From contig JAGIQG010000014.1 in NCBI GenBank assembly GCA_024679065.1, positions 27,528,001 through 27,592,000 on the forward strand: 64,000 nucleotides of DNA. The letters run 5' to 3'. The position numbers were made by a program, and so were the translations under genes. The notes under the pieces were generated by a model. It saw only the letters and a list, made by a program, of their open reading frames with translations. It was not told where the DNA came from and ran no database searches. The number at the start of each line of letters is the position of its first letter. Position 1 is the first letter of the stretch. Positions 916 through 60,772 of the stretch are shown here, one piece after another. The stretch comes from Sphyrna mokarran. Taxonomy: Eukaryota.

Positions 916-1063
916 AGGTAGGGGGCTCATTCTGGGGAAGGTGGGACCTCTACAAGAGGATGGTCTGCACCTGAACCGGAGAGGTACCAATATCTTGGGG
1001 GGTAAATTTGCCAGGGCTATTCGGGGGGGTTTAAACTGATTCGGGGGGGATGGGAACCTGAAT

Positions 1064-3498
1064 TTGTGTGCCAGCATACAGGAGGATGTGAATAGGGAGG
1101 TCAGGGATAAGGTTTCTAGGTCGCAGCAGTATAGTGGCAAAGGGGAGGGTGGTTTGAAGTGTGTATACTTTAATGCGAGGAGCATACGCAATAAGGTGGA
1201 TGAACTTGCAGCCTGGATTGGTGCTTGGGACTTCGATGTTGTGGCCATTTCAGAGATGTTGATAGAGCAGGGGCAGGAATGGTTGTTGCAGTTTCCGGGG
1301 TTCAGATGTTCCAGTCAGAGCAGAGGTGGTGGTAGAAGAGGGGGAGGAGTGGCATTGTTAGTTAAGGACAGCATTACGGTGGCAGAAAAGACGTTTGATG
1401 TGGACTTGTCTGCTGAGGTAGTGTGGGCTGAGATTAGAAACAAGAAAGGAGAGGTCACATTGTTGGGAGTTTTTTATAGGCCTCCAAAAAGTTCCAGAGA
1501 AGTAGAGGAAGGGATTGCAAAGTTGATCCTGGATAGGTGTGAAAGTAACAGGGTAGTTGTAATGGGGGACTTTAACTTTTCTAATATCGATTGGAAAAGC
1601 TATAGTTCAAGTACGTTAGAGGGGTCAGTTTTTGTTCAATGTGTGCAGGAAGGTTTCATGACTCAGTATGTAGATAGGCCAACAAGAGGTGAGGCTATAT
1701 TGGATTTGGTACTTGGTAATGAACCAGACCAGGTGTTAGACTTGGAGGTGGTGAGCACTTTGGTGATAGTGACCACAATTCGGTTACGTTTACCTTAGTG
1801 ATGGAAAGGGATGGGCGTATACCGAATAACAGTAGTTATAGCTGGGGGAAAGGTAATTATGAGGCTATTAGGAGAGATTTAGGATGCATAGGGTGGAGCA
1901 GGATATTGCAGGGGCTGGGGACATCTGAAATGTGGAGCATATTTAAGGAACAGCTTCTGCATGTCCGTAATAAATATGTACCTGCCAGGCAGGGAGGAAG
2001 TGGTCGAGTGAGGGAACCATGGTGTACTAGGGAAGTTGAATCTCTGGTGAAGAGGAAGAAGGAGGCTTACATAATGATGAGATGTGAAGGCTCAGTTAGG
2101 GCACTGGAGAGCTATAAATTAGCCAGGAAGGAGCTAAAGACAGAGTTGAGAAGAGCTAGAAGAGGATACGCGAAGACTTTGGCGGATAGGATTAAGGAGA
2201 ATCCTAAAGCTTTTTACAGGTATATAAATAATAAAAGATTGGTTAGGGCAAGATTAGGGCCAGTCAGAGATAGCAGTGGGAAGTTGTGCGTGGAGCCTGA
2301 GGAGATAGGAGAGACACTGAATGACTATTTTTCGTCAGTATTCACGCAGGAGAAAGACAATGTTGTCGGGGAGAATACTGCGATACCAGGTTGTAGACGG
2401 GGCAGGATTGAGGTTCATAAGGAGGAGGTGTTAGCGAATCTTGAGGGTATGAAAATTGATAAGTCCCCTGGGCCAGATGGGATTTACCCTAGGATTCTCT
2501 GGGAGGCTAGAGAGGAGATTGCAGAGCCTTTGGCTTTGATCTTCATGTCGTCGTTGGCTACAGGTATAGTGCCGGAAGACTGGAGGATGGCAAATGTTGT
2601 CCCTTTGTTCAAAAAGGGGAGTAGGGACCATCCTGGAAATTATAGACCGGTGAGCCTGACTTCTGTTGTGGGCAAAGTCTTGGAAAGAATTATAAGGGAT
2701 AGGATTTATAAGCATCTAGAGAGAAATAATTGATTAGGGATAGTCAGCACGGTTTTGGAAGGGTAGGTCATGCCTCACAAACCTTATTGAGTTTTTTGAG
2801 GAGGTGACCAAAGAGGTAGATAAGGGTAAGGCAGTTGATGTAGTGTGGGGAGTTGTAGACAGCGAGGATGGATGTTACAGTTGCAGAGGGACATAGATAG
2901 GTTGCAGAGCTGGGCCGTGAGGTGGCAAATGGAATTCAATACGGATAAGTGTGAGGTGATTCACTTTGGTAGGAATAACAGGCATATGAAATATAGGGCT
3001 AATGGAAGGACCCTTAATAGTGTTGTCGAGCAGAGGGATCTTGGGGTACAAGTACATAGCTCTTTGAAAGTTGGCACCCAGGTTGATAAAGTTGTTAAGA
3101 AGGCGTACGGTGTGTTAGCTTTTATTGGTAGAGGGATTGAATTTAGGAGCTGTGAGGTTATGTTACAACTGTACAAAACTCTGGTGCGGCCGCACTTGGA
3201 GTATTGCGTACAGTTCTGGTCGCTGCATTATAAGAAAGATGTGGAAGCATTGGAAAGGGTGCAGAGGAGGTTTACCAGGATGTTGCCTGGTATGGTGGGA
3301 AGGCCTTATGAGGAAAGGCTGAGGGACCTGAGGTTATTTTCATTAGAGAGAAGAAGGTTACGCGGTGACCTAATTGAGGCGTATAAGATGATCAAAGGAC
3401 TGGATAGGGTGGATAGTGAGAGCCTTTTTCCTCGGATGGTGATGACCAACACGAGGGGACATAACTTTAAATTAAGAGGTGGTAGTTATAGAACATAG
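1064..3498 (+). pseudogene. Disrupted CR1 ORF2 (APE endonuclease + reverse transcriptase)
   Basis: ORFs 1064..1798, 1798..2733 and 2845..3498 are consecutive frameshifted pieces. The DFSKAFD-GVPQG-FADD core is missing at ~2846. Confidence 0.9.
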
Positions 3499-3950
3499 AA
3501 CATAGAACATAGAACATTACAGCGCAGAACAGGCCCTTCGGCCTTCGATGTTGCGCCGACCATATAAAAGCATGACCCTCCAAACAAAACCATTCCCTTC
3601 TCTTCCATAAACTTATCAACTAACCTCTTAAACGCCACAACTTGGCGCATCTACAACTGCCGCAGGCAGGGCATTCCACTCCCTAACCACCCTCTGGGTA
3701 AAGAACCTACCTCTGATATCCGTCCTATAACTATCACCCCTTAAATTTAAAGCTGTGTCCCCTCGTGCTAGCTTTCTCCATCCTAGGAAAAAGGCTATCA
3801 CTGTCCACCCTATCTAAACCTCTAATCATCTTATATGCTTCGATAAGGTCTCCTCTTAGCCGCCTCTTCTCTAACGAAAACAACCTCAAATCCCTCAGCC
3901 TCTCTTCATAAGACCTGCCCTCCATACCAGGCAACATCCTGGTAAACCTC
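3488..3950 (-). mobile_element. 5'-truncated CR1 3' end inserted antisense into the first CR1
   Basis: Starts with (ATAGAAC)n, the reverse complement of the tail. Its reverse complement is nearly identical to 36026-36484 (RFTRMLPGMEGRSYEERL...). The host resumes at AGGTTCTTTAC (3951). Confidence 0.95.
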
Positions 3951-4152
3951 AGGTTCTTTACACAGAGGGTGGTGAGGGCGTGGAATGCCCTGCCTGCAGC
4001 AGTTGTGGACTCGCCTACTTTGGGGGCATTCAAATGGTCGGTAGATAGGCATATGGATGATATTGGAATAGTTTAGGTTAGAGGGTCCACTGGCAGGCGC
4101 AACATCGAGGGACGAAGGGCCTGTACTGCGCTGTAATGTTCTATGTTCTATG

Positions 4153-5959: not shown

Positions 5960-6870
5960 GCATTTAACTGCAATACAGGTAAACCTGTATGCAATTCCTT
6001 TTTCCTCAACCAAGAAATCCCCCCCCATACTGTGTTAACTGGGCCCTCAACTATGTCCATTCCTATCAACACACTTCTGCTCTCACCCCATTTCATTCCT
6101 TCCAGAACCATGATTGAGTTCCCCTTGTCCTCCAATGTCACACCATTGGTCTCCACATTCATTCTCCTTTGTCATTTCTATCATCTTCAATGTGATTCTG
6201 TCACCAAACACATTTCCCTGTCCCTTACAGCATTCTGATGGGACCTTCCTCCCATACACTCTGGTCCATTCCTTAATCATCCCCAATCAGTCCAATGGCA
6301 CCTTCCCAGGCTAGCACAGGAAATGCAATACCAGCCCTTTTGCCTCCTCACTTATCACAGTCTAAGGCCCCAAACATACTTCCAGGTGCAACAACATTAG
6401 TTATACTTCTTTCCATTTGACATACTTTACTGAATTCACTGCTCATGATGCAATCTCATCCATATTAGTGACATTAAGTACAGGTTTGGTGATTGCTTTG
6501 CCTCTATTCAGTCTGTAAGCATTACCACAAGCTCTGGTCACTTGTTCTTTTAACTCTCCCGCTCTGATCTTTCTGTCTTCAGCTTCCTACTAGTGTTCCA
6601 AAGAAGCTCACTCACCTTTCGAATAGGAATTTGACAGCCTCCAGAACTCAATATTGAGTTCAACAATTTCAGATCATAACCTCTATTTCCACTTTGTTTG
6701 AGTCTCTTCAGCCTCTGTACAATCACAGACTTTCCCTTTTGTTCTTTTCTCCCCTCTCCTTCCCTGCCATCCTTAAAATCTGTTAAATCTCTAAATATTC
6801 TGAGTTCTGATGAAGATTGTCAATCTAAAACATTGATCTCCCTCTTGAGGATTTCCAGCATTTTTGTTTG
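5960..6870 (+). mobile_element. Decayed Penelope-like element 3' part (linker, GIY-YIG endonuclease, pseudo-LTR)
   Basis: Broken-frame GTFP....RKCNT..F.SSL....GPK..FQV, then ..I.CS.C.L..I.D....FGD.F. Ends in a pLTR carrying CTGATGA-AGATTG-T-CAATCT-AAAAC (decayed hammerhead) at ~6808-6835. Confidence 0.75.
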
Positions 6871-7704
6871 TGTGATTCGAGTACGGTTTTCACTATTTGA
6901 CTGTTCGTTAGTTCCGTAAGAAAGTACAGCAGTTACTTGTGTGCCGGACAGTTTTCAGGCTATTTTTGACAAGAAGGGCTGACATCCTTTGATAATTGAG
7001 ATTGAAACCCCTCATTAACACTGAGCTATTTAGTGCACAGAGGCACACATGCATGGAACCTTCTCCCCATTGCTTTCACTGATACCATCTCACTTTCTAT
7101 TGAAAGTATAGCTTCAACATTCCTTTGCCATTCATGGAACAGTTTTGCCACAAGAGTAAGACAAGGAGTAACTAAAGTATGTGTTTGTTTTTCTAAGGGT
7201 CTTCTGACCCTTGTAGTTTATTCACAGTCAGGACATTCCTTTTTCCAAATGAAATACCTTTTATCTACAAAACAAACACCTGGCATTGAGCATTTCAGTG
7301 TAAAGAGGGTCTCAAAGAAAGGGGAGTTATTTGTTTGTAATTATTGTTAAACATATTTTAACATTTGTTTATGTGTCAGGAGTGTTCATGTTAACAGACA
7401 CATATATGTTCACTAGAAAATGAGCTACTGTTGTTCTTAGATTTTTTTTAAACTATGTATTACCAGAAAATGATTTCTGCCCCCTGATTTATTTTGGTTT
7501 TAGCTTTAAACATTATCCTGTGTATTAATAAAATGAATTGCAATATGAAGCATTTCAATCTGTTATGTTATTTTACTAAATACTAAATAAGTATTGTTTA
7601 ACAACTAACCATTTTTCAGTTTCTACTGGAAAACCACTACCCTTGGCCAAATGGCTTTATTCATTCATCAAACAAAAATTGATCCAACTATAGGGTTCTT
7701 CAAG

Positions 7705-8165
7705 TCATATGGTACAGTAAAGGCCCTTTGGCCCATTGAGTCTGCACTGACAATAACTACCATGAAAACCACGTTAATCCCATTTTCCTGCACTTCAACC
7801 ATATCCTTGAATGTTACAATATTTTAAACGCTCATCTAAACATTTTTTAAAGATTGTAAGTTTCTGACCTCCACTACCTTCCATTCCAGAGTCCTACTAC
7901 CCTCTGAATGAAATATCTTTTTGTAAAATCCTCTCTGAATCTCTGAGTGTCTTTAGAAGACAGCCTCTCAGGGAAAACGAAGTGTGGAATTCTCTGATAC
8001 AGTAGAAATTCCATGTTTTAGGGTAAGGAGCAGGAGATTCAGAGGGGATTTGACAAAAAGACTTTTCATTCAAAGAGTGGTAGGACTCTGGAATGCACTG
8101 CCTGGGAAGGTAGTGGAGGTCAGAAACTTTAAAAAATGTTTGGATGAGCACTTGAAGTATGTTGT
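7705..8165. repeat. Two CR1 3'-end fragments in inverted orientation (minus ~7705-7942, plus ~8010-8165)
   Basis: Both carry TTCATTCA.AG.GT.GTAGGACTCTGGAATG...GGTAGTGGAGGTCAGAAACTT. The minus copy retains the GGCCCTTTGGCCC stem-loop and tail. Confidence 0.8.
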
Positions 8166-22289: not shown

Positions 22290-22492
22290 AGTACTGCAGA
22301 TGCTGGGATCTGAAACAGATATAGAAAAATGCTGGAAAACCTCAGCAGGTCTGACAGCATCTGTGGAGAGAGAATAGATGTAACGTTTTGAGTCTAGATG
22401 ATCCTTTATCAGACCTTTGGAGATCTATCCTTTCTCCACAGATGCTGTCAAATCTGTTGAGATTTTCCAGCATTTTCTGCATCTGTTTCAGA
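22290..22492. repeat. Inverted pair of Penelope pseudo-LTR fragments (hairpin)
   Basis: TCTGAAACAGAT...ATGCTGGAAAA.CTCAGCAGGTCTGACAGCATCTGTGGAGA and its near reverse complement at 22432-22492. Decayed hammerhead core on the minus strand at ~22381-22413. Confidence 0.75.
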
Positions 22493-24769
22493 TATTAGTT
22501 GAAAGATGAGTGTTGGTTAGGACAATCCATTATAGGCCATCAAAGGTTCAGTGAACTTTCCCTGTCTGGTGGAACTCACTATTGCTGCACTAAATGCTGC
22601 CAGCATTGTATAAGTTAGCACAAGCACAAGTATTACCACTTGATGCAGGTCAAAGCTGATACATTGAGAGATATTGATTCAATACCAAGCACAGAGATAG
22701 CACTTTGTTCACTGCTTGTAATTGAATCCATATTAGTACAAACAATAGTGTTTAATAATTTAGGTATAAACATCAGTCTTTTTCCAGATGTTGAAGAGAC
22801 CTCTTCCGCAGAAGATAGCCTCACGATGATCACTAACTATGCAATGTGAGTGATTCAAACCATCTGCAGATGAAGTGCTAGAACTAACGGATTGTGCACA
22901 GCAGAGCAGAGCCGTCAACTGAGTAATTCATGGAAAACCTCATTAACCCAGAACAACAGCTTTCTCATACAACCTCGACAGCTGACGCTGACATCATCCC
23001 CCACAGAGTGACATTTCATTCACAAATGTCCGTGTGTAATAAGTGATATCAGGACAGCAGCCAGAACAGGAACTGCTGAGCATTAGTCAAGCTAGTCAAT
23101 GATGCTATTCAGGAATCAAACTCTAAAGCTGAAATTGACCACAATGTAGAGAAAACTGCCAATAAAAGGCTTAGTTACCTTCAATTCCAGCCAATTAAGG
23201 GCCCTCAAAACCACACTTTAAACCATGAAGTACTTAGCAAGACCCTGATTATGCAAAGGGATACAAATTAAGTTAGCAGGGTAACAGATAGGTATAGTAA
23301 CTGTTAGCAAAGCATAATCACAGAAGAATAACCTTTTAGTTCTAACAAGTTGAAGCACCCCAAGGATTACTCTATGCAATCTGAGATGGCTTTGAAATTA
23401 TTCCTCCTAAAAGCAGGAAAGTACATGTTTTAATATGTTCTGAGCAGCTTACACACAGGCTGCCTTAGAAAGTGTAGCAAACTTTGCCTCTCTTTCTGAT
23501 AACTGTTGATGTTGTTGGCTCAGGAAGCCTTTTATTTTAAACATAGCATGAAACCTGGCACTTAGCTGCCAACAGACATGCTGTTCATTCTGCACTGTGA
23601 TTAGTGACTTGACTTGAGGACTGAGAGAAAATAGTGCTCAGTGTTATTAAAGTAGTGTAATCCTCAAGAGGCAAAGCACACTGTTAAAACCCCAAAACTG
23701 AACAAAACTGCAGTATGTTGCAGATAAAAAACTGAAAACAATTCTGCGGCATGTTATAATCTTGATAGGAGAGAGTATTAATGTAATAAACTTGATCTGA
23801 CAACTAATGGCACTCTTGTGGTCTATTGTGATCATTGTTGGTAAAATAAATACTACAATGTGTTCCAGGTGTCAACTTTGGCTCAGTTGACCCATGCACC
23901 TTCACCTACTCCAATGGCCCCTCATACTCTCCATCCTTATCCTTGCGACCCATCCATCCACATTGCCTCTTATAACCCCTATGTTAACTTAGTGCTAACT
24001 CATGCTAACACATGTCCCTCCCACCCACCACCTTTTGCTTGTTTCCATGTCAATTCACCCAGTATCTATCATGAGAAGACCTCAGGAGCCATGCTGAGAT
24101 GAAAATAAAGTTCTAAGCATCTATTATAAACTTTACTATATTGAAAAAAGTTCTAATTGATAAAATCCATTCAATGTATTTCAATCTCCTTAAGTTCTTA
24201 TTCCCTTTTGAAACAAACATTTTTATTCATAGCTCTATGTCAGAGATAGCTAATCTCTTAATAGCTTCTTGGAGCTATCAATAGAACTGTGAACCTACAG
24301 CTCCACAATAGTAAAAACAGGTTTTGAAAACAGTTAAGAAGTAATACCACTATAGTGTTTGTCCTTGTTGTTATGTTAACAAACAGCTGTTAAAACGACC
24401 CATTTTTTTCAACTCAGAGTAAGTTGTTTCTTTTCAAAATATAAAGGGCAGAGGATTTAAATAACATGCCAGCTTGATAGTTCCACAGAACTTACCTGAG
24501 TATTCAGATCTACTCTTTAAAATTATAAGTCATACAGTATGGGAAATGGATCTATTACAGCGAAAACGAGGTCTGTTTGAACTCAGCATTATGTTCAAAT
24601 AACTGTGCTGGGTTCAGATTTCTCCCATGTGTGAATCATACTGCACTCTCTTTAATCTACCACTGAAGTAGGGCCAGACTTTTGGACCCAGGATCCCAGT
24701 GTTATCTTGAAAAGATATGGAATCCCTAAGATTAACAAAATTTGGGCCTTCAAAGCAGTACCATGAAAA

Positions 24770-25066: not shown

Positions 25067-26249
25067 AGCTGTATTGCAGAACACTGTGATCCTGAGGACA
25101 GTATTTCAAATGCTAATGGCAACATTACAGTGCTTTACAACCCCTAATCAGAACAATATCATGACACAATGATAGAAGATTCATCATCTCTCTTGTCTGG
25201 GATGGAATTGAAAAAAAAGACATTCAAATTCACCATACCTATATTCAGGTTTATCTTGTCTCCAAGAGATTGGCCACTATCTGGGTGTTCTCAGCTGGAG
25301 ATCAATGGAAGGAGTTGCTTGATTACTGTGTTCCCAACCATTGTTTTTAGGATCCACCAAAAACTAGAATGTGGGGTTAATGAAGTCAGACAATTGATTT
25401 GCTTTGTGTTATAGGTTGCTATTGACAATAGGACTATTGCATTCCTGCATTGATAGCAAACTATAAATATAGCGTTATCTTAACTATGTGTTTCAATATA
25501 TTTCAATCGGAACAAAGTATTATTTGATCTGAATCTGCAACTCCAGAATCAGAGTTCCAAGATAAACAGAATGTAGATTCAACGGCCTTTTTATTGGTTA
25601 CATTATGTGTTTATTAAACAGTCTGTTTTTGTACAGGGCCTTTTCTACGAACATCATCTCAGCGTCTGTCTGCTGAGTGGTATCATAGCTTTTACTTCAC
25701 TGGCCATTGATTTCTGTTGTGTGTAAGCAATTACTCACAAAGTCCCTTCCAGTAGCCAAGAAATCTGTTTGGAATTGCAATTGAAGAATATATAAAGGAT
25801 ATTTCAAAACAGACACTCGGATCTAGCTCATTGTTTCACCTGAGATTCTTGTTACTCTGATATGAAACAAATACTAAGCCTGCAGCAGAATCACAGATAA
25901 GATATGTTGAGTTTTTTTAAAAAAAGGCCTCACTCATCATCTCTTATTCCTTCTGTTATTCACAGTACTCCAGGGTATGCTTCTTTTATTGTTATGCAAA
26001 TCACCCACTATTATGCACTTTGCTTCTGAGTTTTTATTGTTGCGTTGCTTCTTGTTATTGACATAATTGCCCTTTGCTGTGATTAGAAAGTACAGCCATG
26101 CTTCTTACTGAATGCACATGGAGGAAATGATTCAATAAAGCCCCAATTCTACAACCAAAAATATTCAAATTGTTGAGGCAAAGCTAAAATAGCCTTGATA
26201 AATCCCAAATACTGTCAATTCTATAGTACTTCTGACTCTCTACTCCTAA

Positions 26250-26478
26250 GGTGTAGAGATGCCGGCGTTGGACTGGGGTCAACTCAGTAAAGTTTTGCAA
26301 CACCAATTTTAAATCCAATCAATTTATTTGATAGTAAATCCATGAGCTTTCAACACTATGTTCTGCAGATCAGAACACTGCATTTGCCTGATGAAGGCAC
26401 AACATAGTGTCGAAAGCTCATGGATTTACTATCAAATAAATTGGTTGGATTTAAAATTGGTGTTGCAAAACTTTACTG
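26250..26478 (-). mobile_element. Palindromic non-autonomous Penelope-derived element with 13-bp TSD
   Basis: 78-bp inverted arms 26285-26362 / 26401-26478 (2 mismatches). Minus-strand tail CCCCAGTCCAACGCCGGCATCTCTAC. TSD TCTCTACTCCTAA at 26237-26249 and 26479-26491. Confidence 0.85.
26384..26422 (+). ncRNA. Minimal type I hammerhead ribozyme core
   Basis: CTGATGA-A-GGCAC-AACATA-GTGTC-GAAA-GC-TC. Stem II pairs, stem III is the palindromic AGCT, stem I pairing is poor in this copy. Confidence 0.55.
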
Positions 26479-27367
26479 TCTCTACTCCTAACCCAGAGAA
26501 AGCAGTCAGATGTGGCTTTAATGCTCCGAACTTGAAAATTATAATTACCAGTCTAATATGACATTGAAAGTTTGAAGTTTTGGGACGCGACTGAATGCAT
26601 TCATACTGTAACTAGTGTTGTATATTCTATATATCAGATATATGCAAATACGCCATTAATTCCTATGAGTGAAGGAACTTTATTTATAGAAGTTTTATAC
26701 AATACTTTAAAATGTCTGCTCCATGCTTATAACTTTGTCTTCTAGCTCTTTTTACTTACCTTGATTCACACCCAGACTTGCCATTCAAACATTGTGAACA
26801 TCAACAACTAACAGACGGATATAATTAGACACAGAACAATTGAACACTATAATAAGTGCATCATCTGTATCATCCTCCTGCCACATCCAAAATGCTGAGT
26901 GCCCCACACATATTGTTATGATCCCTATATAGATCTCTAACTTTTCAAAAGAGATAATTACCAGATTTAAATGAATCACATGACAAGATGTCATGTTCTG
27001 TGACTACGACTATAACAAACAAACTAAAATCAACATTGCCTACGAACTAACGTTAATTCAATTAATGCTCCACATTCCATATACTCAATAGAACAATCCA
27101 AAGTTACTCCCGGTTCCAAAGAGATTCTCTCTCTCACTGCGTCCAGGGTTTCTGAATCAGAACAAGAGAGTGTGTAAGTCTAGACAATATCAATCCAGTT
27201 CCTTCTGTCTCAAGTATTTCATATGGCACCTGGGTTTCAATAGGACTTGACAAGGACACTGGTCCCAATGAATACAAGGTCTTGTCAGCTTATCACTGGA
27301 CAGAACTAATAGCAGGTCACATGATCCACTTTGCCTTGAATTATAAAGAATAATTTAAAACACAATG

Positions 27368-28689: not shown

Positions 28690-28802
28690 ACTGCAAATGA
28701 CATAGAAATCTACATAAAAACAGATAATGTGAATAAAAGCAGCAGGTCTGGCAGCATCTGTGGAGAGAGAGAGACAGAGTAAAGCATTTGAGCCCTTTCA
28801 AA
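28690..28802 (-). repeat. Penelope pseudo-LTR fragment (same family as 22.3 kb)
   Basis: CAGCAGGTCTGGCAGCATCTGTGGAGAGAGA. Confidence 0.65.
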
Positions 28803-33090: not shown

Positions 33091-33499
33091 TTCTCTTTAA
33101 GAACAGTCACTTCAGTGCTACCCTTGCAGGTGTTTGAGTAGAAAGGGACAAACAGATGCAATGAAGAGATTTGGTTAGCACAGTTGGTTGAATGGCTGGT
33201 TTACAATGCCAACAGCGTTGGTTTATTTCTCTTAACCGATTAACGTTATTCATTCATGGAAATCATTGAATAGCTAAAGCACAAGAGTCCATCAGACTAT
33301 AAACCAGAGTCAGCACTCTGCAAGCAAAAACTTAAGTGGGTGGCATGGTGGTTAGCACTGCTACTTCAGGGCAAAGGACCCAGATCTGAAAGTGTACATT
33401 GGGGGATTCCTGCATTATTGGCAAAGAACATCCTTCTTAAATTCGTAAAATAAACCCTGATATGGCCAGATTTGAAGTGGTGGAATAAGGGAATCATTC

Positions 33500-36484
33500 A
33501 GGGGGCTTTAAACTGATTCGGGGGGGGGGGGTGGGATCCTAAGTAGTTGGGGTGCTAAGAGGGATGAGAGTAAGGGGGTCATAGAGGAAAGCTGTAAAAC
33601 ACAGCAGCATACGGGTGGGGTAGGGCATGGTTTGAAATGGTATACTTTAATGCAAGGAGTATTCGCAATAAGGGGGAGGATTTGCAGCTTGGACCAGTAC
33701 CTGGAACTTCGATGTTGTGGCCATTTCAGAGACTTGGGTAGAGCAGGGACAAGAATGGATGTTGCAGGTTCCGGGGTTCAAATGCTTTAGTCGGAGTAGA
33801 GAAGGAGGTAGAAGGGGGGGAGGAGTGGCATTATTAGTCAAAGACTGTATCACAGTGACAGAAAAGAAGTTTGATGAGGACTTGTCTGTTGAGGTAGTAT
33901 GGGCTGAGATTAGAAACAGGAAAGGAGAGGTCACCCTGTTGGGAGTCTTTTATAGACCTCCTAAAAGTTCTAGAGAGGTTGAGGAAAGGATTGCAAAGTC
34001 AATTCTGGTCAGGAGTGAAAGTAATAGGGTAATTGTTATGGGGGACTTTAACTTTACTAATATTGATTGGAATAGCTATAGCTCTAGCTCGTTAGAGGGG
34101 TCAGTTTTCGTACAAAGTGTGCAGGAAGGTTTTTTGACTCAGTATGTAGATAGGCCAACTAGAGGTGAGGCTACATTGGATTTGGTGCTGGGCAATGAGC
34201 CAGACCAGGTGTTAGGCTTGGAAGTTAGTGAACATTTTGGTGATAGTGACCACAATTCGGTTACGTTCACCTTAGTGATGGATAGGGATAGGCATGAAGC
34301 TGGGGGCAGTAGTTATAGCTGGGGGAAGGGTAATTATGAGGCCATCAGGAGAGAATTAGGGTGCATAGATTGGACTAGGAAACTACAGGGACTGGGAACA
34401 TCTGGAATGTGGAGCTTATTCAAGGAGCAGCTGCTGCGAGTCCTTGATAAGTATGTCCCTGTCAGGCAAGGAGGAAATGGTCGAGTGAGAACCTTGGTGT
34501 ACGAAAAAAGTTGATTTGCTGGTTAAAAGGAAAAAGGAGGCTTATGTCAGGATGAGGCTTGAAGGCTCGGTTAGTGCAATGGATAGCTATAGATTAGCCA
34601 GGAGGGAGCTAAAGAGTGAATTGAGGAGAGCTAAGAGAGGACACGAGAAGACTTTGGCTGATAGGATTAAGGAGAATCCTAAAGCTTTCTTTAGATATGT
34701 TAAGAATAGAAGATTGGTTAGGGCAAGATTAGGGCCAGTCATAGACAGCAGTGGGAAGTTGTGCGTGGAGCCTGAAGAGATTGGAGAGGCACTGAATAAA
34801 TATTTCTCTTCGGTATTCACGCAGGGTGATGTAAATGTAGTTATGGAGAACACTGAGGTACAGGGTAGCAACTGGAAGGACGAAGTAGATAGGGAGGATG
34901 TGCTAGATATTCTCGAGGGTTGAAGTTGGATAAGTCCCCTGGGCCGGACGGGATTTACCCTAGGATTCTCTGGGAGGCAAGAGAGGAGATTGCAGAGCCT
35001 CTGGCTCTGATCTTCAGGTCGTCGTTGGTTACGGGTGTGGTTCCGGAGGACTGGAGGATAGCGAATGTGGTCCCGTTGTTCAAGAAGGGGAAGAGAGACC
35101 TTCCAGGGAATTATAGGCCAGTGAGTCTTACTTCTGTGGTGGGCAAAGTGTTGGAGAGAATAATTAGGGATAGGATTTATAGTTATTTAGAGAGTAATGA
35201 ATTGATTGGAGATAGTCAGCATGGTTTTGTGAAGGGTAGGTCGTGCCTTACTAACCTCATTGAGTTTTTTGAAAAAGTGACTAAGGAGGTGGATGGGGGT
35301 AAGGCGGTTGATGTGGTATATATGGACTTTAGTAAGGCGTTTGATAAGGTGGCCCATGGAAGACTTCTGCAGAAAATGCAGATGTATGGGATAGAGGGTG
35401 ATTTAGCTAATTGGTTAGGAATTGGCTAGCAGATAGAAGACAGAGGGTGGTGGTTGATGGGAGATATTCATCTTGGAGTTCGGTGACAAGTGGTGTACCT
35501 CAGGGGTCTGTTTTGGGGCCCCTGCTGTTTGTAATTTTTATAAATGATCTGGATGAGGGTATTGAAGGATGGATTAGTAAATTTGCAGATGACACTAAAG
35601 TCGGTGGAGTGGTAGATAGTGAAGAGGGGTGTTATAGTTTGCAGAGGGACTTGGACAAGTTGCAGAGCTGGGCCGAGAGGTGGCAAATGGAGTTTAATGT
35701 GGAAAAGTGCGAGGTAATGCACTATGGCAGAAATAATAAATGTGTAGAGTATAGGGCAAATGGTAGGATTCTTAGTAGTCTAGATGAACAGAGGGATCTT
35801 GGTGTGTATGTGCATAGATCCCTGAAAGTAGGCAGTCAGGTCGAGAAGGTTGTTAGGAAGGCATATGGAGTCTTGGCTTTTATTGGTAGAGGGATTGAAT
35901 TTCGGAGCCGCAACGTCATGTTGCAACTGTACAAAACTCTAGTGCGGCCGCACTTGGAGTATTGTGTGCAGTTCTGGTCCCCACATTATAAGAAAGATGT
36001 GGAGGCATTGGAGAGGGTACAGAGGAGGTTTACCAGGATGTTGCCTGGTATGGAGGGCAGGTCTTATGAGGAGAGGCTGAGGGATTTGAGGTTGTTTTCG
36101 TTAGAAAGGAGGCGGCTAAGAGGGGACCTAATCGAAACATATAAGATGATTAGAGGTTTAGATAGGGTGGACAGTGATAGCCTTTTTCCTAGGATGGAGA
36201 AAGCTAGCACGAGGGGACACAGCTTTAAATTAAGGGGTGATAGTTATAGGACGGATATCAGAGGTAGGTTCTTTACCCAAAGGGTGGTTAGGGAGTGGAA
36301 TGCCCTGCCTGCGGCAGTTGTAGATGCGCCAAGTTTGGTGGCGTTTAAGAGGTTAGTTGATAAGTTTATGGAAGAGAAGGGAATGGTTTAGTTTGGAGGG
36401 GCATTGCTTTTTATATTGGTCGGCACAACATTGAAGGCCGAAGGGCCTGTTCTGTGCTGTAATGTTCTATGTTCTATGTTCTAT
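33500..36484 (+). mobile_element. Young CR1 (HER1-type) LINE, 5'-truncated at the ORF1 stop
   Basis: GGGGCTTTAAACTGA ORF1 end, complete APE and RT motif series, 3'UTR GGCCGAAGGGCC stem-loop and (GTTCTAT)3 tail at 36464-36484. Confidence 0.97.
33630..36391 (+). pseudogene. CR1 ORF2 (APE + RT) broken by frameshifts
   Basis: ORFs 33717..34514, 34516..34923, 34920..35429 and 35411..36391 contain GDFN, SDH, QHGF, DFSKAFD, GVPQGSVLGP, KFADD and LERRRLRGD. Confidence 0.93.
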
Positions 36485-38176
36485 TTCACCTCTCCTCACC
36501 TGGTCATAACAGAAATTTGGTGGAGAATATCTGGGAGAGATCCCACAGACAATGAATGAACAGAATAGGGAAAGTAAATTTTATCCAGAAATAATTTGTT
36601 TTTTTAAACAAACTAACTGCTGCAGGTTTTCTTTCATTTACAATACCAAAATGCAAAAACGTTCACTCTCTAAATCAGTGTTTTTCTAAAACAAATTGAA
36701 ATTGCTTTTTGTAAAGGCTCTATCCCTCAAAGTTGAAAAGTGAACCTAAGGAATTGGAGTTAGAGTTTTGCCCAAAAACCAAGAAACAGGAACTTTTAAA
36801 ACTTGTGGCCAAACAATTGATTTGGGAACGTGGAGGAATTGTAATATACAGCCTAGCTTTAATGGAATTACAGCTAGAAATGAAATGGCTCTATTCCCAA
36901 ACAAGACAGGAAAATCAGAGGGGAAAAAGAAAAAGAGGAAAGGTAAAAAGAAAGAGGGGAAAGAAAAAGAGAGATGTTACAGATAGGAGAACATAAATTT
37001 AAACAGCTCTGATTTCTCCTCTCACCAGCTGTCTGCAAATAAATAGGTGTTTTGATTTTTTTGATTTCCCACTTTAAAAGTGGCGATGTATTTCCCAAAC
37101 CTTTCAGTTTGGCAAAATCCAATCCTCTATTAATAACAGCGCCACAAATTTGAGATCAGATAAACTAAGAGGGTTTCTTATTTAATACGCACACAAATTG
37201 CAGAAAAGGGGTTTTGTCATGTCCATCCAATTTTACATTCGAACCATAAAAGAGGAACGAGGGAAAAAAAGAGGTACAGGACAGAACCACAATAAAATTT
37301 ACATTTATTGTCTGATGTGACTCCAGTGCCGAGAACCAAATGTCCAATGTCATATTCATTCAGAAGTTGGTAGGCTGACTTTTGCAGGTGATTATTTGTC
37401 TAGAAGCGAGGAATTCTATGATGGGAGATGACGTATAAATGAATTAGTCTTGAAAACACAAATGCAGAAGTTCAGCTGTTAGAGTAGTTCAGTGTAGATG
37501 AGGGCTAGGCAATTTACCTGGACAGAGCTCTCTCTGCTGCTATCTGTTTGGTATAATGGTAGACAAAGGCAGGTTGCTTGCCTGAAGTCCTGCTTCTCAA
37601 CTGAGGTTAAACAGTGACTGAAGATAAAATTTAAAAGCTGTATAATGAAAGGAATTAAGACAATTTAAATGTCACTCATGATAGGGTAATTTTGGATTAA
37701 TCTATTCAGTTAACAAGGCCCCTGGTTGAAACATATTGTGTTTTGCAGCTGGTAACAGAAGGGCCATTAACACAACATTGGAAATTAGCGGTGGGATTTT
37801 ATATCCTCATTCATTGCAAAATCACACCCGAGGTCAACAGACCTGCCTACTGCAATTCCTGTGGCAGGTGGGGCGGTAAAATTAGGAGTCATGAATACAT
37901 CTAACTTTGCCCAAAGTTGGCTGTGCAGATTTATCATCTTCTGTCCATCGCATTGGCTTGGCTGGAGTATTTATACATTGCAAGATGTGTTACGTTCCAG
38001 AGGGTTTGATATGTTAATCATAGTCCACTTTCAAACTGCTCAAAAGCTTCTAGAAACAGGTGTTTGTGATTATTACAGCTGTTTTATTAGCCCAGCAACT
38101 GTCCATTGTAAAATGTAATTTTATAAAGCAGCCAGGCTGATACATAGGGATAGATCACTGTGTCCATAAAACGCAG

Positions 38177-38409
38177 TAAGAATTTAGCAACACCAATTTT
38201 TAATCCAACCAATTTATTTGATAGTAAAATTGCGAGCTCTCAACACTCCGTGTCTTCCTCAGGCAAATGCAAATGGCATTTGCCTGAGGAAGACACAGAG
38301 TGTTGAAAGCTCGCAATTTTGCTATCAAATAAATCGGTTGGATTAAAAATTGGTGTTGCTAAATTCTTACTGAGTTCTTACCACCCCAATCCAACGCCGG
38401 CATCTTTAC
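38177..38409 (+). mobile_element. Palindromic non-autonomous Penelope-derived element with 14-bp TSD
   Basis: 97-bp inverted arms 38174-38270 / 38276-38372 (4 mismatches, 5-nt loop; the first 3 nt overlap the TSD). 37-nt tail ...CCCCAATCCAACGCCGGCATCTTTAC. TSD TCCATAAAACGCAG at 38163-38176 and 38410-38423. Confidence 0.9.
38280..38316 (+). ncRNA. Minimal type I hammerhead ribozyme
   Basis: TTGC-CTGAGGA-A-GACAC-AGA-GTGTT-GAAA-GC-TC-GCAA: stem I TTGC/GCAA, stem II GACAC/GTGTT, palindromic AGCT stem III. Predicted cut after C38312. The mirror copy on the minus strand has GAGA instead of GAAA. Confidence 0.7.
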
Positions 38410-38479
38410 TCCATAAAACGCAGCAGTAGCTCAGGTTTGAGTACCAAGTTATTCAAGGTTGCTGACTTAATCCTCCAGT

Positions 38480-42399: not shown

Positions 42400-45300
42400 A
42401 GACATGAAGCAATGGGCTGCATGCGGGAATAAGTTCAATTCTAATGTGTAGCCGTTGACACACATTACGCAGTAGCTGCTCTACACGTAATATAATCACA
42501 TTTCGGAATTGAAGAAGTTTGTGTATTCGTTGGATAGCACCTACAATGCTGAAATTCAATGAAGTGGTGACACCACAGGTAAAGACTGAACAGGCACAAA
42601 GGAGATGGGTGACCACCAGGTAGAGTAGACGAAGGCAGGTAATGCAGGAGACCTCTGTGGCCAACCCTCTCTTTAACAGATATACCATTTTGATATGTTG
42701 GTGGGAAAAGCATCTCAGGGAATAGTAGTGAAAGCCAAGACCCATAGTGTCACAAGAGGTGAGCAGCTGAGAACAGGCAATGAAGAATATCATTCATTAT
42801 ATTGTATAAGATCTATTCAAAATAAAGCAAACTACACAATGCTTCATTTTGGATCATGTTCAAAAGAGGGAAAGAAGAAGAATGGCAAGGTTATAGTGAC
42901 AAGAGATTCAACAGTAAGGGGAACAGATAGGAACTTCAACAGCTGCAAAAGAGACTCCAGGAAGGTGGGTTGCCTCCCTGGTACCAGATCAAGGATGTCT
43001 CAGAATGCCTACATTACATTCTGAAGGGAAAGGGCGAACAATCAGTGGCTGTGATACTTATCAGTACCAACGACTTGGTTAAAAAGAGGATGAGCTCTTA
43101 CAAGCAGAATATAGGAAATTAGAAGGACACCAATTTAAAAAGTAGGATCTCAAAGATAATAAGGTGAAGATTACTATCAGTGTCACATTCTAATGCGAGT
43201 AAAAATAACAGAGGTATACCAGATGAATACATGACTGGAGAAATGGTGTAGGAGGAAGGGATTCAGATTCCCAGGACATTGGGGTTGGTTCTGGGGAAGG
43301 TTGGGCTATAATAAGCAGGGTGGGTTGCATCTGGGCAGGACCAGGACCAAAATCTTAGGATGTAGGGTGTTTACTAGAGTTATCGGGAAGGGTTTAACCT
43401 GGAACACAATTGGGAATAGGAGCCTAAGCATGGAGTTGGAGGAGGAAGAAACAAGGATAGAAATAAAAGACAGAAATGTAAGATGCAAAAGTGGAAAACA
43501 GAAAAAATAAGGGCAATAAATAAACGGTGCCAAAATGCACAATAAATCTAAGATGGCTAACAAGGTTGAAAATACAAGTCCAAAGACTGTGTGTTTTAAT
43601 GTGCATTTATATCCATCTACACTGATAATTCATCTACTTTATTTGTAGATGAATTAACAGTGCAGCTGGATATAAATGGTTACAATGTAGTTGCAATTAT
43701 AAAGACATGGCTAAACGATTACCACGGATGGGAATTGAACATTCAGGAATATTCATTATTTAGAAAGGACAGATAAAAAGGGAAAGGAGGTGGGGTAGCA
43801 TTGTTAGTAAAGGAAGAAATTAATGCAATAATGAGGAAAAATATTGGCTCAGAAAATTATAATTATGGAACTTATATGGACAGAGATAAGAAACATCATG
43901 AGGCAAAAAATGTTGTTGGGGGACTGTCTGTAGGCCCCCAAACAGTGATGTAAGGGAAGGTGGTAAACAAAAAAATCAAAGATGCATGTAATAAGGATGC
44001 AACTGAAATTATGCGTGACTTTAATTTACAAATAGATTGGTCAAACCAAACTAATAATGATATAGTGGTGGAGAAATACATTTGTGATTTTTTTTAGACC
44101 AATAGAACCAACCAGAGAAGTTTAAGTGTATTTATTAGTGTCACAAGAGCAGGCTATTCTAGACTGGTAAAGTGCAATGAAAAAGAATTAATTAACAATC
44201 TTGTGAGGAGGCCCTTGGGGAAGGTGACTGAAATATGATAGAATTTTTCATTAAGGTGGAGAGTGAAGTAGTCAAATCTGAAACTAGAGTCCTGAATTTG
44301 AATAAAGGGAATTAAAGGAGTTGATGGTGGATAGGTGATGGTTCATATTTTAAAAATGTGTGCATGAATTACAATTATTCACTCCTGTCTGGCACAAAAA
44401 TAAAAGTGGAAAAGTGGCTTAACCATGAATTACAAAATAAATTAGGGATAATATTAAATCTAAAGAGGATACATATAAAATTGCCAGAAAAAAGCAGTTA
44501 GCCTGATGATTGGGAGTATTTTAGAATTCAGCAAAAGAGGACAAAAGGCAAAAAAAAAAGAGTATGACAGTAAAATTGCAGGGAACGTAGACACTGACCG
44601 TAAAAACTTCTATAAATTTGTGAAGATTAACACAAATTGTGAAAATTTAAAGACAAAGACTCCTTTCAGTCAGGAGCCAGAGAAATTACAATGGAGAACA
44701 AAGAAATGGCAGAATAATTCAACACATATTTTGATTCTGTCTTCATAAAAGAGGGCACAAGTAACAGAAATGTTAGGGAACCAAGGATCTAGTGAGAGGA
44801 GAGAAAGGAAGGAAATTGTTACTAGTAAGAAAATGGTGCTGAGTAAATTAATAGAATTAAATGCTAACAAATCACCTGATAATCTACCACCCACAATATT
44901 AAGGAAGTGCGCTAAAAATACTAGATACATTGGTGGTCATCTTCCAAAATTCTACAGACTCTGGAGTAGTTCCTAAAGATTGAAAGGTGGCAATGGGAAT
45001 GCCACTATTCAGAAAGGTAGAGAGAGAAAAAGAGAACTACAGACCAATTAACCTGACTCTTCAAACAATGATAATACAGAATACCAGAAAGAAAGAGAAT
45101 CTGGTAACCTGACATGACGACAATAATCTCTCCCACAATGTCAACAAAATGAAGGAGATTGTCACCAACTTCAGGAAGCATAGTGGAGGACGTGCCCCTG
45201 TCCATATCAATGGAGATGAAGTCAAATTGGTCGAGAGCTTCAAGTTTCTAGGTGTCCAGATCACCAACAATCTGTCCTGGTCCCTCAATGCCAATGTTAT

Positions 45301-48435: not shown

Positions 48436-48660
48436 CTATCTCTCTCTCTCTCTTTTTTTACACGTGCGTGCACGCACACACACAGCTTTCTCTCACACAA
48501 TCACCTCCTCACAAACACTCATCCACACGTGCACTCACCGCCTGCCTCACACATATACACACTCATCATGCTCGCTCACAAACACATTCACTCATTTCTC
48601 TCAAACACATAATCATCTTCCCTCTCTTGCACGTGCACACACATCCACATACATACAGAC
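48436..48660. repeat. Degenerate (CT)n/(CA)n microsatellite tract
   Basis: Interspersed TCTC, CACA and CACGTG runs. Confidence 0.7.
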
Positions 48661-49298
48661 ACCCATCAGGTACATGGTACATACTCATGCAACTCAGCCT
48701 ACTCATATACTGCAGGAAAGGAAGTCCTGTAGCATTTGGCGAGACCATGCAGATGCTATGACAACAAATGAACAGATGGTGCGTGACAATTGCTAGGCAA
48801 GAGAGTCCCCTTCCAGTCAGGAACACTTCATTAGTCAAGGGCATTCAGTCTCTGATCTTCAGGTAAGCTTTCTACAAGGCAGCCTTCAAGACACATGAAA
48901 CCCAGAATCGCTGAGCAGAAACTATTAGCCAAGTTCTGGATGCATGAGGATGGTCTCAACCAGGCTCTTGATTCATGTTACACTACCTGCAACCCATATC
49001 GTTTGGCTTGGGCTGGCAAAATCCTACTAACTGTTCTGGTTTGAGACAATTCACATCTCATTAACCTGTGATTATCCTTCTCTCCACTTGCACTATCTGT
49101 ATCCGTAAAGACTTGATTATTATCTTGCAATTGTGTCTTTGTCTATATATGATGTGTTTGTGAAACTACCTCTCCACTCACCTGATGAAGGAGCAGCATC
49201 CAAAAGCTTGTGATTCCATATAAACCTGTTGGATTTTAACCTGATGTTGAAGCTTTTTACTGTGCCCACCTCTGTCCAACATCTGCATCTCCACATCA
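48660..49298 (+). mobile_element. Penelope-like element 3' part (GIY-YIG + pseudo-LTR + tail)
   Basis: HQVHGTYSC...CRKG....GETMQ.L.Q.MN....IARQE..LPV..HF.SQGHS.SDL.VS.LQG...IAEQKLLAKF..HEDGLN. The pLTR carries TCAC-CTGATGA-AGGAGCAGCATCC-AAAA-GCTT-GTGA (CpG-decayed hammerhead); tail TCCAACATCTGCATCTCCACAT. Confidence 0.88.
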
Positions 49299-52000: not shown

Positions 52001-52914
52001 TCACTAGCAAGTTGTTCAGAGTACCCAAATCTTCCAAAAATTTCACCCTGTCTATCATTCTCTTTGAAGATGTCTTCATAACAGTGACTTCAGGCCATTT
52101 TAAGTGCACGTCTACCATGATAAGGAATATATATCACCTTCGAATAGTTCAGATAATTGATGTAGACTGCCAAACCCTTCTGGCCACTCATGTGAAATGA
52201 CTCCAGTGGCAGCAAGTTTCAAACTTTTGCACATGATAAACATGTCATCATCTTTCCCTCAATCTCAGTATTGCGTTTTAGCCATCAGAAAGAACTTTTG
52301 GCTATCTCCTTCATCCTTACTATCCTTCATGAATAACCTTCATGAAATTGGCTTAGGATACATTTCCTAATGGTAGTGAAATGATAACCCTCATTCCCCA
52401 AAGGAAACATCCAGCATGTGCAGATGGTTTGAATCTTCAGCTGAAATATGGCTTCAACTCCAGGTGTATTCCTGCGGTCTTAAGTGGATCATTCTTGGTA
52501 TATTTCTTAACTTGTCCTGCAGTTATAGAAGTGCTACTGACTTTAAATAAAAAAAACTGTGTAAAGGCATTACACATCACTAGGTGACTGGGTTGTATAT
52601 AAATATAAAATAATGTTTTAATGTGCCTGATTTAGTGCAGTTTATAATTCTGTGGAGAAATTGTGCAAGTTTAAAAGTATGACTACAAATGACAAAATCA
52701 TATCACAACATCTTACAGAATGCTATTGACTTTAAAATAAAACATGTTACACTTTAATTATGTGTTGCTGACTTTTAGGTGAAGGTAATTTGGAGAGTCC
52801 AACCCATGGAGATTAGATTGCTGATATTTATTGTGTAAGTGTGAGCTGATGACACTCTTTGCATCCGGCTCGCTAATAGCGATGGAATATCAGAATGCAG
52901 CCCGAATATCGTCA

Positions 52915-55742
52915 CAAGTCTCTTGGTAAAAATGGTAGATCTTGAAAAAGATCTTCTCTACCTGTGCATAATTCCCTTCTATTTTGTTGAAGGATCTTGA
53001 TGTAAATGCTATTGGCTTCTCTTCACCATTGGAAATTATGTGAGAAGCCATTTCTCCCATCCTGTAAGGTGATGCGTTCCAAGCCAGTTGTTAAGTGAAC
53101 TTCAGGTCAAACTGAGTCAGTGCTTCTAACTTTAATAATGTCTTTTGCTAGTGTGAAGGCCTTCTTGCACAGATCCATCTATTTCCATTTCCTGTTTTGA
53201 CGTAATAAGTTGTGTAGAGGCTTGAGAATAGTTGCTAGATTTGGGGCAAACCTTCTATCAAAGCTTAATAAGCCCAAATACCACAGAAATTGATTTATAT
53301 TTAAGGTGATGGTGCCTAAGTTATAGCTTTTATTTTTAAATACAATTTCTGGAGTCTCTTTGCATTTGTGAAGTACCCCAAGTATTCTGTAGAAGATTTG
53401 AAAAATTCACATTTATCCTTCTGTATTCATTATCCAAAATCTTCTAGTCTTTGGAGTGTGGCATCTAAATTTTGAAGGTCCTCTTCTTCAGTCACTAAGA
53501 TTAGTACTGGACTCCATCTAACCTGTTAATCTAATTGAGAATTTAGAACAATGCAGATGTGGATGTGATGCCAAATGGAAGCCTTTTTATATCTGAATAG
53601 TTCCTTATGTAATCATGATGGTCAACTATTGTTATGAATCTGGGTCCACACTTATCTGGAGAGAAGCTTGACCTAAGGTCAACTTTACTGTAATGCTGGC
53701 ATTCAGCAAACAGATCTTCAATTACACGTAGAGGTACTGTTCTGCACACAATACAGGATAAATAGTGATGTAAAATTGCCACATTTGGGTACCAAACCAA
53801 TTTCCTCATCACTGGCACTATCGCTATAGCCCAATCAGTTACATTAGGAGTCCTTGAACTCATTAATGCGACTGGTATTTCCAATTCTGCTTCAATCTTG
53901 GGTCTGATGGTGTATGGCACTGGCCTGGCCCTTAAGATTCTTGCTTGGCTTTTGTTCTTAATCTTTAGTCTGACTGAATAAGAAGTCTCACGCCACCAGT
54001 TAAAGTCCATCAGGTTTATTTATTAGCATGAGTTTTCAGAGTGCTGCTCCTTCATTAGGTGAGTAATGTTTAGCTGCCCTTATAGCATGTTACCAATGGT
54101 CACACTACAACAGATTCAAAATTATCATTGCTTATATTCTACCAATCTCCTTCATGCTTCCCAACTCCCCATTAAAAACAGTGGTATAATTCTTTGAAGT
54201 TTTCAAAAGACTGCTTCAGATCTCAACATGAGGTTTATCTAGGCCCACTTTAACTTGATTCTCTCCATCAAGTTCTCCCCATTGGATAGTTATTTTCAAT
54301 GATATGCAGGGATAAGTCTGCATTTTGCACATTTACACTGACATGCTTCTCAAAGGAATCACTTCTCCAGCATGGGTTTTGAGTATTATCTTTGAGAGTT
54401 TCAAGGTGATGGGTTATAGTTTCTCTTGGTATCCAGTTTCTGGTGCCAATGACACAGTGACTCTGGTGTCCATCTCCATAAAGACGTGTCCCAATAATGG
54501 TTAGTTGCATCAGCAATTGACAGTATGTACAACAATAGTTTATCATCTGACTGTGATTCTGGTCCATTTTCATGCCCTTTTTGTACCATGTAGATACTCT
54601 TTCCTCTATTAGTTTTCCACTTGGATCTTTTGGATCAGGCTTTTTATAATTGTTTGAAATTTGTTTCTACCTCCAACATGCCTGCCCAATATGCCTCTCT
54701 TTACCGCATTTTGCATCTTTACTCTGACAATCTGCTGTTGTGTGCCCATGTTTTGTACATTGGTGGCAATTTTGAACCTGTGTCTATATTTAGGTCTCAG
54801 CTGATACCCTATAGACTTCAATGCCCAAGCTTAATTTTTGGGCTCCCTTAATTGCTAGTTTCATAGAGATTGCAATTTCTAAAATCCTTTGTAGGTCTTA
54901 GTAGCTTTCTGTTAACAGCCTTTTCTAGGTAGCTCCATATTTTAATCCGTCTCAAATGGTGTCATTCAAGACATCTCCAAATTCATGGAATTCAGTTAAT
55001 TTCTTTAAAGTCCTACAAATTTTGTGATTGATTCACCTCCTTGCTGGTTACAGTTTTGGAATCTGAACCTCTTGGAGATAACTAAAGGTTTTGGTGAGAA
55101 GTAGTTGCAGTATTTCCACTATTTTACCATAAGCTTTTGAGCCTGATTTTACCAGTTGTGTCAGACTGAGCAGAAGGTTGAAAGTGCTCAGGAAAGTCAG
55201 GACTACCATATCCACTGAAATTTGGTTCACCTGACAACGTATTCAAATCTTTGTGTATAAGTTTCAGTGCTTGGTGCTTTCATCATACTGTTCCATAGTA
55301 CCAAAACCTCCCACCATTTTTACTATGGGAAGGTTTGAATGAGCACAAATGTGCCATCATGTTTTTTATCACTAGCTCTCATATTTTATTTCAAACAGGT
55401 AACCCTGAGCTTGCCTGTTTCTTCCTCAGATTTCAATTAATTGTTGCAACACTTGCTACCCACAGTAGAGGGAGCACCATTCCAGGCACCGTTCCAGAAT
55501 ATTCCAAGCAGAGCACGTGGCATCACTTTTTTATGCTGATATTTTTTAAATTTTTGTTTATACTCTGATTTTTTTTAAATGTTTATTGATCTTATGTAGC
55601 ACCCCTCTATCATCATCCTTGATATAGCAATGATCTTTCTTTTTTTGAAATATGCAGCATTGGCCAATGATTTTTCTTACTTTAACAGATTTCTGCGGTT
55701 CTTTGAGTGTTTGCAGTGTGGATTCAACTACCTCGTCATCAG
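52915..55742 (-). mobile_element. Decayed Ty3/Gypsy element (gag-PR-RT-RNaseH order), no LTR resolved
   Basis: Minus strand: PBS-like TGATGACGAG (~55740), gag ..KRFRF....Q..GESI, zinc-knuckle remnant (~54700), MDT.V.VSL protease, ARPVPYTIRPKIEAEL, KRLPFGITS.SALF (ORF 53543..54010), RNaseH ..ASPY......GEE.PIAF.SR. Confidence 0.85.
53972..54065 (-). repeat. Penelope pseudo-LTR fragment inserted in Gypsy pol
   Basis: Minus strand ACTCACCTAATGAAGGAGCAGCACTCTGAAAACTCATG...AATAAACCTGATGGACTTTAAC, same family as 49178-49260. Confidence 0.8.
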
Positions 55743-60597: not shown

Positions 60598-60772
60598 TCA
60601 CTCCTTTCACTTCCTCCTTCACTCCTTTTCACTCCTTCACTCCATTTTTCAAGGGGTGAAAAATTGATCCCTCAATAATCAATAATCCCTTGATTATTGA
60701 GGGATCAATTCCTCAATAATTGATCTTATTGAGGAATAAGATCAATTTCTCTTATTGATCAATTTTCTTATT
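60598..60772. repeat. Short tandem repeats followed by nested inverted repeats
   Basis: (CACTCCTT)-like units 60598-60648; perfect 21-bp IR 60662-60682 / 60690-60710; further overlapping IRs to ~60770. Confidence 0.85.

Follow-up and report, generated by a model that had tools for sequence, protein, structure and literature searches.

A putative Penelope-like element pseudo-LTR hairpin carrying mirror-image hammerhead motifs in the Sphyrna mokarran genome

Penelope-like elements (PLEs) leave insertions of a characteristic shape. An inverted, 5′-truncated copy accompanied by a tail of 30 to 40 bp is described in PMC8557442 and, as an inverted truncated copy with a tail, again in PMC8969392, and PMC3846280 describes an inverted pseudo-LTR (pLTR) with a tail and a target-site duplication (TSD) of 8 to 10 bp. 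Thousands of solitary minimal hammerhead ribozymes have been ascribed to truncated PLEs, and in Schistosoma dual minimal hammerheads lie on opposite strands, 100 to 700 bp apart (PMC4209133, Cervera and de la Pena 2014). According to the same source, cleavage was absent with a single minimal motif and weak with dimers. For Poseidon of Anolis carolinensis, Frangieh et al. (2024, PMC11167929) report that the reverse transcriptase/endonuclease (RT/EN) cuts and extends both target strands and that RT starts at two internal sites, the spacing of which corresponds to the tail. The Poseidon hammerhead lies about 100 nt upstream of these start sites; it required protein, and insertion could proceed without it (PMC11167929). 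Retrozymes are direct tandem repeats from which unit-length RNA is released and circles form (PMC7229834; bioRxiv 10.64898/2026.07.22.740005). Here, we describe a short hairpin from Sphyrna mokarran that resembles these systems in part. The window analyzed is 64,000 nucleotides long (GCA_024679065.1, contig JAGIQG010000014.1, positions 27,528,001 to 27,592,000), and all coordinates below are numbered from its first base.

The hairpin occupies positions 38163 to 38423. It opens with a 14-bp left TSD (38163 to 38176, plus strand), followed by a tail-less arm (38174 to 38270, minus strand), which would be the inverted 3′ part of a PLE pLTR stopping at internal RT start site 1. A 5-nt junction loop (38271 to 38275, assigned to no strand) leads to the tail-bearing arm (38276 to 38372, plus strand), the sense copy of the pLTR segment that matches the tail-less arm. 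The 37-nt tail (38373 to 38409, plus strand) would, by analogy with Anolis Poseidon, be the stretch between two RT start sites, and the 14-bp right TSD (38410 to 38423, plus strand) closes the unit. The arms are 97 bp each with 4 mismatches, all of them transitions and 2 at CpG-type sites; an automated repeat search lengthens them to 101 nt at 95% identity by entering the TSD and the tail. The direct repeat is exact, with a chance probability of about 3e-6 when 400 placements are allowed. The final 3 nt of the left TSD double as the end of the left arm, and the new DNA between the TSDs amounts to 233 bp. An earlier note, made by a model from the letters of this stretch, had listed 97-bp arms, a 5-nt loop, a 37-nt tail, and an exact 14-bp TSD, all of which we confirm, as we do its description of the insert as coding-free. 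Its summary of a unit of about 235 bp with a 14-bp TSD holds for the anatomy but not to the base, as 233 bp were inserted and the TSD may comprise either 14 bp or, with 3 nt put down to microhomology, 11 bp. The 5-nt loop repeats the 5 nt immediately preceding the arm end, as would be expected if RT slipped and recopied at the 5′ end of its template.

The tail-bearing arm carries an intact, PLE-type minimal type I hammerhead at 38280 to 38316 (plus strand). It consists of the core (38284 to 38290), an extra A (38291), a 5-bp stem II with a 3-nt loop, GAAA (38305 to 38308), a palindromic AGCU, and a 4-bp stem I, with cleavage predicted after C38312. The tail-less arm carries a mutant version at 38230 to 38266 (minus strand), in which A14 reads as G (base 38239), giving GAGA. 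A change of A14 to G would be expected to inactivate a hammerhead, and the minus-arm motif is probably inactive. A strict minimal-hammerhead descriptor matched the plus-arm motif and nothing else in the 64 kb, compared with a mean of 0.02 matches in 200 dinucleotide-type shuffles and with none of the 200 when the palindrome was also required. The complete plus-arm motif and the GAGA variant that had been claimed are both confirmed. A looser core pattern did not discriminate: it matched 13 times where 7.0 were expected, and 7 of 100 shuffles reached as many. The covariance models recommended as a check gave no such confirmation: with Rfam 15, no hammerhead family matched the hairpin at E≤5 in a 4.5-kb search or at E≤10 with a single arm, and none reached gathering level in the whole window. 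The plus-arm motif fits the PLE consensus given in PMC4209133 in its CUGANGA, the extra base between positions 9 and 10.1, G10.1, and GAAA, as well as in the palindromic 15.2/16.2 pair, the UH, and the short stem I; its G10.1-U11.1 differs from the usual G-C, and G-U is also found in some of the families presented there. The 5′ ends of the hairpin's two motifs are separated by about 20 nt, in contrast to the 100 to 700 bp of Schistosoma (PMC4209133). The words "shark" and "Callorhinchus" had no match in one supplementary file of PMC4209133.

A BLAST search of the hairpin unit against the 64-kb window found a sister insertion of the same family at 26237 to 26491 (minus strand), with a 13-bp TSD (26237 to 26249 and 26479 to 26491), a 35-nt tail, and a junction containing filler. 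Its arms are 81 to 85% identical to those of the first hairpin and 96% identical to each other, and the two inserts measure 229 bp (sister) and 233 bp. The tail-less arms of both hairpins end on the same hexamer, site 1. The centers differ: that of the sister is asymmetric, its tail arm beginning inside stem II after a short filler that holds a small inverted repeat, so that one arm is without the 5′ half of the hammerhead. The sister's core at 26388 (plus strand) is intact, and its stem I is broken, the first stem-I pair being absent. The comparison of copies proposed earlier as a check on breakpoint constancy gave a divided answer: the two copies have different junctions, yet one inner end stays the same to within a few bases. 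These are two copies differing by 15 to 19%, and each subfamily could keep its own inherited junction. The hairpin TSDs, at 13 to 14 bp, are longer than the 8 to 10 bp of Adineta PLEs. A reading frame beginning at an ATG within the sister's hammerhead core runs without a stop through the tail-less arm; in the tail arm it meets one stop.

Eleven kilobases from the first hairpin lies a related, 5′-truncated PLE (48702 to 49298, also given as 48616 to 49298; plus strand). It contains a frameshifted GIY-YIG 3′ end, a long pLTR, a TATA-like box (49144), a decayed hammerhead (49182), the site-1 motif, and a tail. An nhmmer model built from the four arms of the two hairpins matches 49179 to 49293 over model positions 6 to 128 (E = 1.7e-9), within the pLTR that is joined to the decayed, shark-type GIY-YIG gene, and gives a weak match at 53979 to 54059 (E = 0.014); the best E value in a reversed-window control was 0.9. 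Upstream of the pLTR match, 48702 to 48969 reads as three frame-shifted pieces. An index-free search with one endonuclease piece returned a single protein match among 1.84 billion representatives (E = 6e-7). A word-index protein search with the same piece returned nothing, the ESM Atlas gave for one endonuclease piece only unrelated matches, all below 0.9, and Pfam recognized none of four short pieces. The 34 longer relatives of the matched protein mostly bear the names of sharks (Mustelus, Scyliorhinus, Heptranchias, Chiloscyllium, and Hemiscyllium). A Heptranchias PLE protein matches the 48.7-kb GIY-YIG remnant by tblastn (E = 3.8e-13). In the Scyliorhinus protein model P0023 the order is endonuclease, pLTR, hammerhead, tail, and the translation of its tail matches both hairpins (E = 0.001 to 0.004 against a four-sequence target). 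Because the profile match adjoins a GIY-YIG remnant and P0023 shows the same order, the hairpin is, on sequence homology, a fragment of a PLE pLTR, its arm and tail corresponding end to end to the 3′ part. The same homology supports the Penelope-like origin that had been proposed and, by extension, mobilization by a PLE RT/GIY-YIG enzyme. Around the 49-kb PLE, the tail of which ends at an ATG, possibly the start of an open reading frame, no direct repeat of at least 8 nt was found.

The linked PLE is only 62 to 71% identical to the hairpin family, and a weak protein search with the hairpin translation found no autonomous element of the exact family among 1,862 candidates at E≤1. Two long shark-type proteins carry an RVT_1 domain. 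The cysteine linker (CxxxxCxxC) between RT and EN is present in all five shark-type proteins examined, and the GIY-YIG pattern is present in four of the five. These linker-bearing proteins match the 48.7-kb remnant rather than the hairpin family itself, and the linker, a criterion common to Neptune and Nematis (PMC8557442), points to one or the other of these clades. The source element was probably an endonuclease-bearing PLE of the Neptune clade, a label taken from the linker motif, not from a tree. Like EN+ PLEs of that clade, the hairpin has head-to-head inverted pLTR copies, a tail of 30 to 40 nt at one end, a TSD, and a minimal hammerhead in the pLTR; unlike them, it has no open reading frame between the arms and only about 100 nt of pLTR per arm. 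Several shark host-gene models contain PLE endonuclease pieces (P0010, P0011, P0014, P0023, P0026 to P0029, P0034, and P0035; the host genes concerned are XRCC5, PPP1R12A-like, FAM210B, septin 5a, follistatin-related 5, USP8, and FAM204A), reflecting either exonization or gene-prediction artifacts.

In pLTR homology, a minimal hammerhead, a one-sided tail of 30 to 40 nt, and an inverted, 5′-truncated copy within a TSD, the hairpin agrees with PLE insertions. We consider it very probable that it is a short head-to-head inverted insertion of a PLE pLTR end, made afresh at each insertion, with the hammerheads as passengers. The PLE RT/EN would nick the two target strands 11 to 14 nt apart, which would yield the TSD, and each target 3′ end would prime one cDNA, from site 1 for the tail-less arm and from site 2, some 35 nt beyond it, for the tail arm. 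Both cDNAs would halt after about 100 to 135 nt, often where the template has its 5′ end just upstream of the hammerhead, and the joining of their 3′ ends would create an inverted repeat with a tail on one side. The hairpin would in this way form de novo at each insertion, and the hammerheads would be mirror-imaged because the arms are, masked in read-through RNA, and left to decay neutrally. In both independent insertions the end of one arm falls on a fixed site and that of the other 35 to 37 nt beyond, with a TSD around the whole. The likeness to Anolis Poseidon would lie in a tail set by two RT start sites, a hammerhead about 100 nt upstream of these, and the cutting and extension of both target strands (PMC11167929); clade and host are different, the available text of PMC11167929 does not model short hairpin insertions, and the ATT cut preference described for Poseidon is not evident at the four junctions of the two hairpins. 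Twin priming in PLEs is a step that we infer ourselves, and a literature search on twin priming found no PLE paper.

PMC3846280 prefers self-priming on an antisense template for palindromic PLE junctions. Applied to the hairpin, this would mean that one cDNA or antisense RNA folded back, primed itself, and was copied back before annealing to the second target overhang, a route that we regard as improbable. Besides the reading in PMC3846280, the near symmetry of the first hairpin with its 5-nt loop speaks for it, as do the match of 6 of 7 nt between the end of the left TSD and the template spanning site 1 and the small inverted repeat in the sister's filler. Against these stands the sister itself, which shares the site-1 end base without microhomology, so that site 1 looks like an RT start and not an annealing point. 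Its junction, with half a hammerhead missing and filler inserted, resembles end-joining of two ends, and the Anolis enzyme extends both strands (PMC11167929). The exact site-1 end without microhomology and the filler junction together favor two primed ends over fold-back.

The earlier note had read the hairpin as retrozyme-like, with a ribozyme motif in each polarity. We think it quite unlikely that the hairpin is a nonautonomous element of this kind, propagating whole and using ribozymes on both strands. The unit does share with animal non-LTR retrozymes its small size, lack of coding sequence, type I hammerhead, PLE derivation, and probable mobilization by PLEs (PMC7229834; bioRxiv 10.64898/2026.07.22.740005); it is flanked by TSDs, two copies of similar size lie within 64 kb, one inner end is conserved, and animal retrozymes are reported to derive from PLE pLTRs, one chondrichthyan genome included (bioRxiv 10.64898/2026.07.22.740005). 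Retrozymes, however, are direct tandems with a hammerhead in each unit and circular RNAs (PMC7229834), whereas the hairpin pairs two inverted arms and has a single motif on each strand, and one cut per strand could release neither a unit nor a circle. The direct repeats found in the window include no tandem unit; we saw neither direct tandem repeats with a hammerhead each nor foldable ribozymes flanking a unit-length RNA. Furthermore, the minus core is mutated and the junctions of the two copies, 15 to 19% apart, differ. Among the hammerhead-bearing arms in the window, one of seven scored is intact (the plus arm, 38280 to 38316) and six are broken, a count that excludes two arms without all or half of the motif and the decayed fragment at 28721 to 28770. 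Where arms have diverged by about 2% from a common origin, a 13-nt core would remain intact by chance, without selection, with a probability of 76%. The copies in the window bear no sign of selection.

RNA folding bears on the retrozyme-like reading as well. In the isolated tail arm, stems I and II form with pair probabilities of 0.79 to 0.98; in the whole unit, on either strand, these fall to 0.0, and the full hairpin is predicted to be a stable rod of −159 kcal/mol. The rod that had been expected to mask the ribozyme is thus borne out by the folding. The escape suggested with it, co-transcriptional cleavage, fails for read-through transcripts: with the arms head to head, the complementary arm is the first to emerge in read-through RNA from either strand, and in each of the six prefixes folded, from 38295 to 38372, pairing takes up at least 92% of the hammerhead region. 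On this prefix folding we ruled out co-transcriptional cleavage of read-through RNA as a rescue of the ribozyme. In these predictions, folding of the hammerhead motif would require a transcript that begins near the loop. Cofolding of two 49-nt hammerhead RNAs gave a minimum-energy structure without a dimeric ribozyme, weak evidence either way. That the host retains the hairpin to supply double-stranded RNA (endo-siRNA or miRNA-like) or as an editing substrate is scarcely credible, for although the rod is stable and weakly matches miRNA-precursor models, far below gathering score, any long inverted repeat yields such Rfam matches, and the mismatches between the arms are the unremarkable transitions already described, with two at CpG-type sites.

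Several other elements share the window with these PLE insertions. At 53975 to 54064 (minus strand), a single tail-less arm of the 49-kb family starts 6 nt upstream of a decayed hammerhead; it sits in an LTR-retrotransposon-like remnant, and no TSD was found around it. Decayed LTR-retrotransposon-like pol pieces extend over 52893 to 54019 (minus strand), with an RNase H-like Pfam match at 52893 to 53090. An older hairpin at 22290 to 22495, for which no clean TSD was identified, presumably belongs to another PLE family, an assignment that we make from its decayed hammerhead. Decayed pieces related to the 22.3-kb family lie at 6200 to 6880 (plus strand), with a broken hammerhead at 6807, and at 28721 to 28770. 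The stretch upstream of the 6807 motif resembles what we take to be a PLE endonuclease end, which tblastn with 35 retrieved proteins did not support. Two LINE copies with AP-endonuclease and RT frames (1019 to 4152 and 33496 to 36484), about 82% identical and presumably CR1-like, are accompanied by inverted 3′-end duplications at 3267 to 4152. Short inverted repeats without a hammerhead match occur at 7819 to 8160, 43604 to 43678, and 60657 to 60715, the first of which looks like an inverted LINE fragment. Pfam, applied to all 248 stop-to-stop frames of at least 62 amino acids in the 64-kb window, reported LINE-type endonuclease and RT, the RNase H-like piece, and one ALKBH8_N only; neither a PLE domain nor a host exon was found. 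Cumulative GC skew climbs through most of the first 48 kb.

The inner ends of the arms may hold a record of RNA 5′ ends. In four of six insertions an arm stops 6 to 9 nt upstream of the hammerhead core; the other two, at 48.7 and 6.8 kb, extend far upstream. Upstream of core C3, the first hairpin and its sister agree over exactly 8 to 9 nt before they part; the 54-kb fragment agrees with the long pLTR over 6 nt and beyond them at 7 of 24; and in the 22.3-kb hairpin about 8 nt of the hammerhead arm precede the junction, as read by eye. The second arm of the 22.3-kb hairpin starts within 2 nt of the predicted cut, a single decayed case. A TATA-like box lies at −38 in the long pLTR (49 kb) and, with the usual spacing of 30 nt from TATA to start, would place a start site near −7; in the 6.8-kb remnant the box lies at −15, so that one of the two long pLTRs does not fit the idea. 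Drosophila Penelope has a TATA-less promoter, with starts 46 nt upstream of an intron ending at helix I (PMC2377424, PMC4209133), and the Anolis study found no RNA-seq reads with ends at the hammerhead cut (PMC11167929). We offer as a tentative and somewhat doubtful suggestion that the hairpins record the ends of PLE RNAs, their cDNAs having run off at the capped 5′ end of the mRNA or at the ribozyme cut. A full-text search, with most subscription journals, Repbase, and Dfam outside its coverage, found no paper stating such a run-off model.

The hairpin at 38163 to 38423 is a well-preserved but ordinary remnant, one of several PLE remnants in the window, and each of its structural features is already published: hammerheads on opposite strands, an inverted pLTR with a tail and TSD, and a tail set by two start sites. 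To annotators, such hairpins could pass for MITEs, miRNA precursors, or ambisense ribozyme RNAs. Their value lies in the data that they provide on how PLEs build inverted ends and on the role of the hammerhead in vivo, subjects raised in PMC8557442 and PMC11167929. If inner ends prove to cluster at the transcription start and the ribozyme cut, counting junctions in shark genomes would be a test of both, with no bench work. Were the run-off suggestion true, genome-wide junction mapping would give the first in vivo evidence that the minimal PLE hammerhead cleaves in the germ line and that the cleaved RNA serves as a template.
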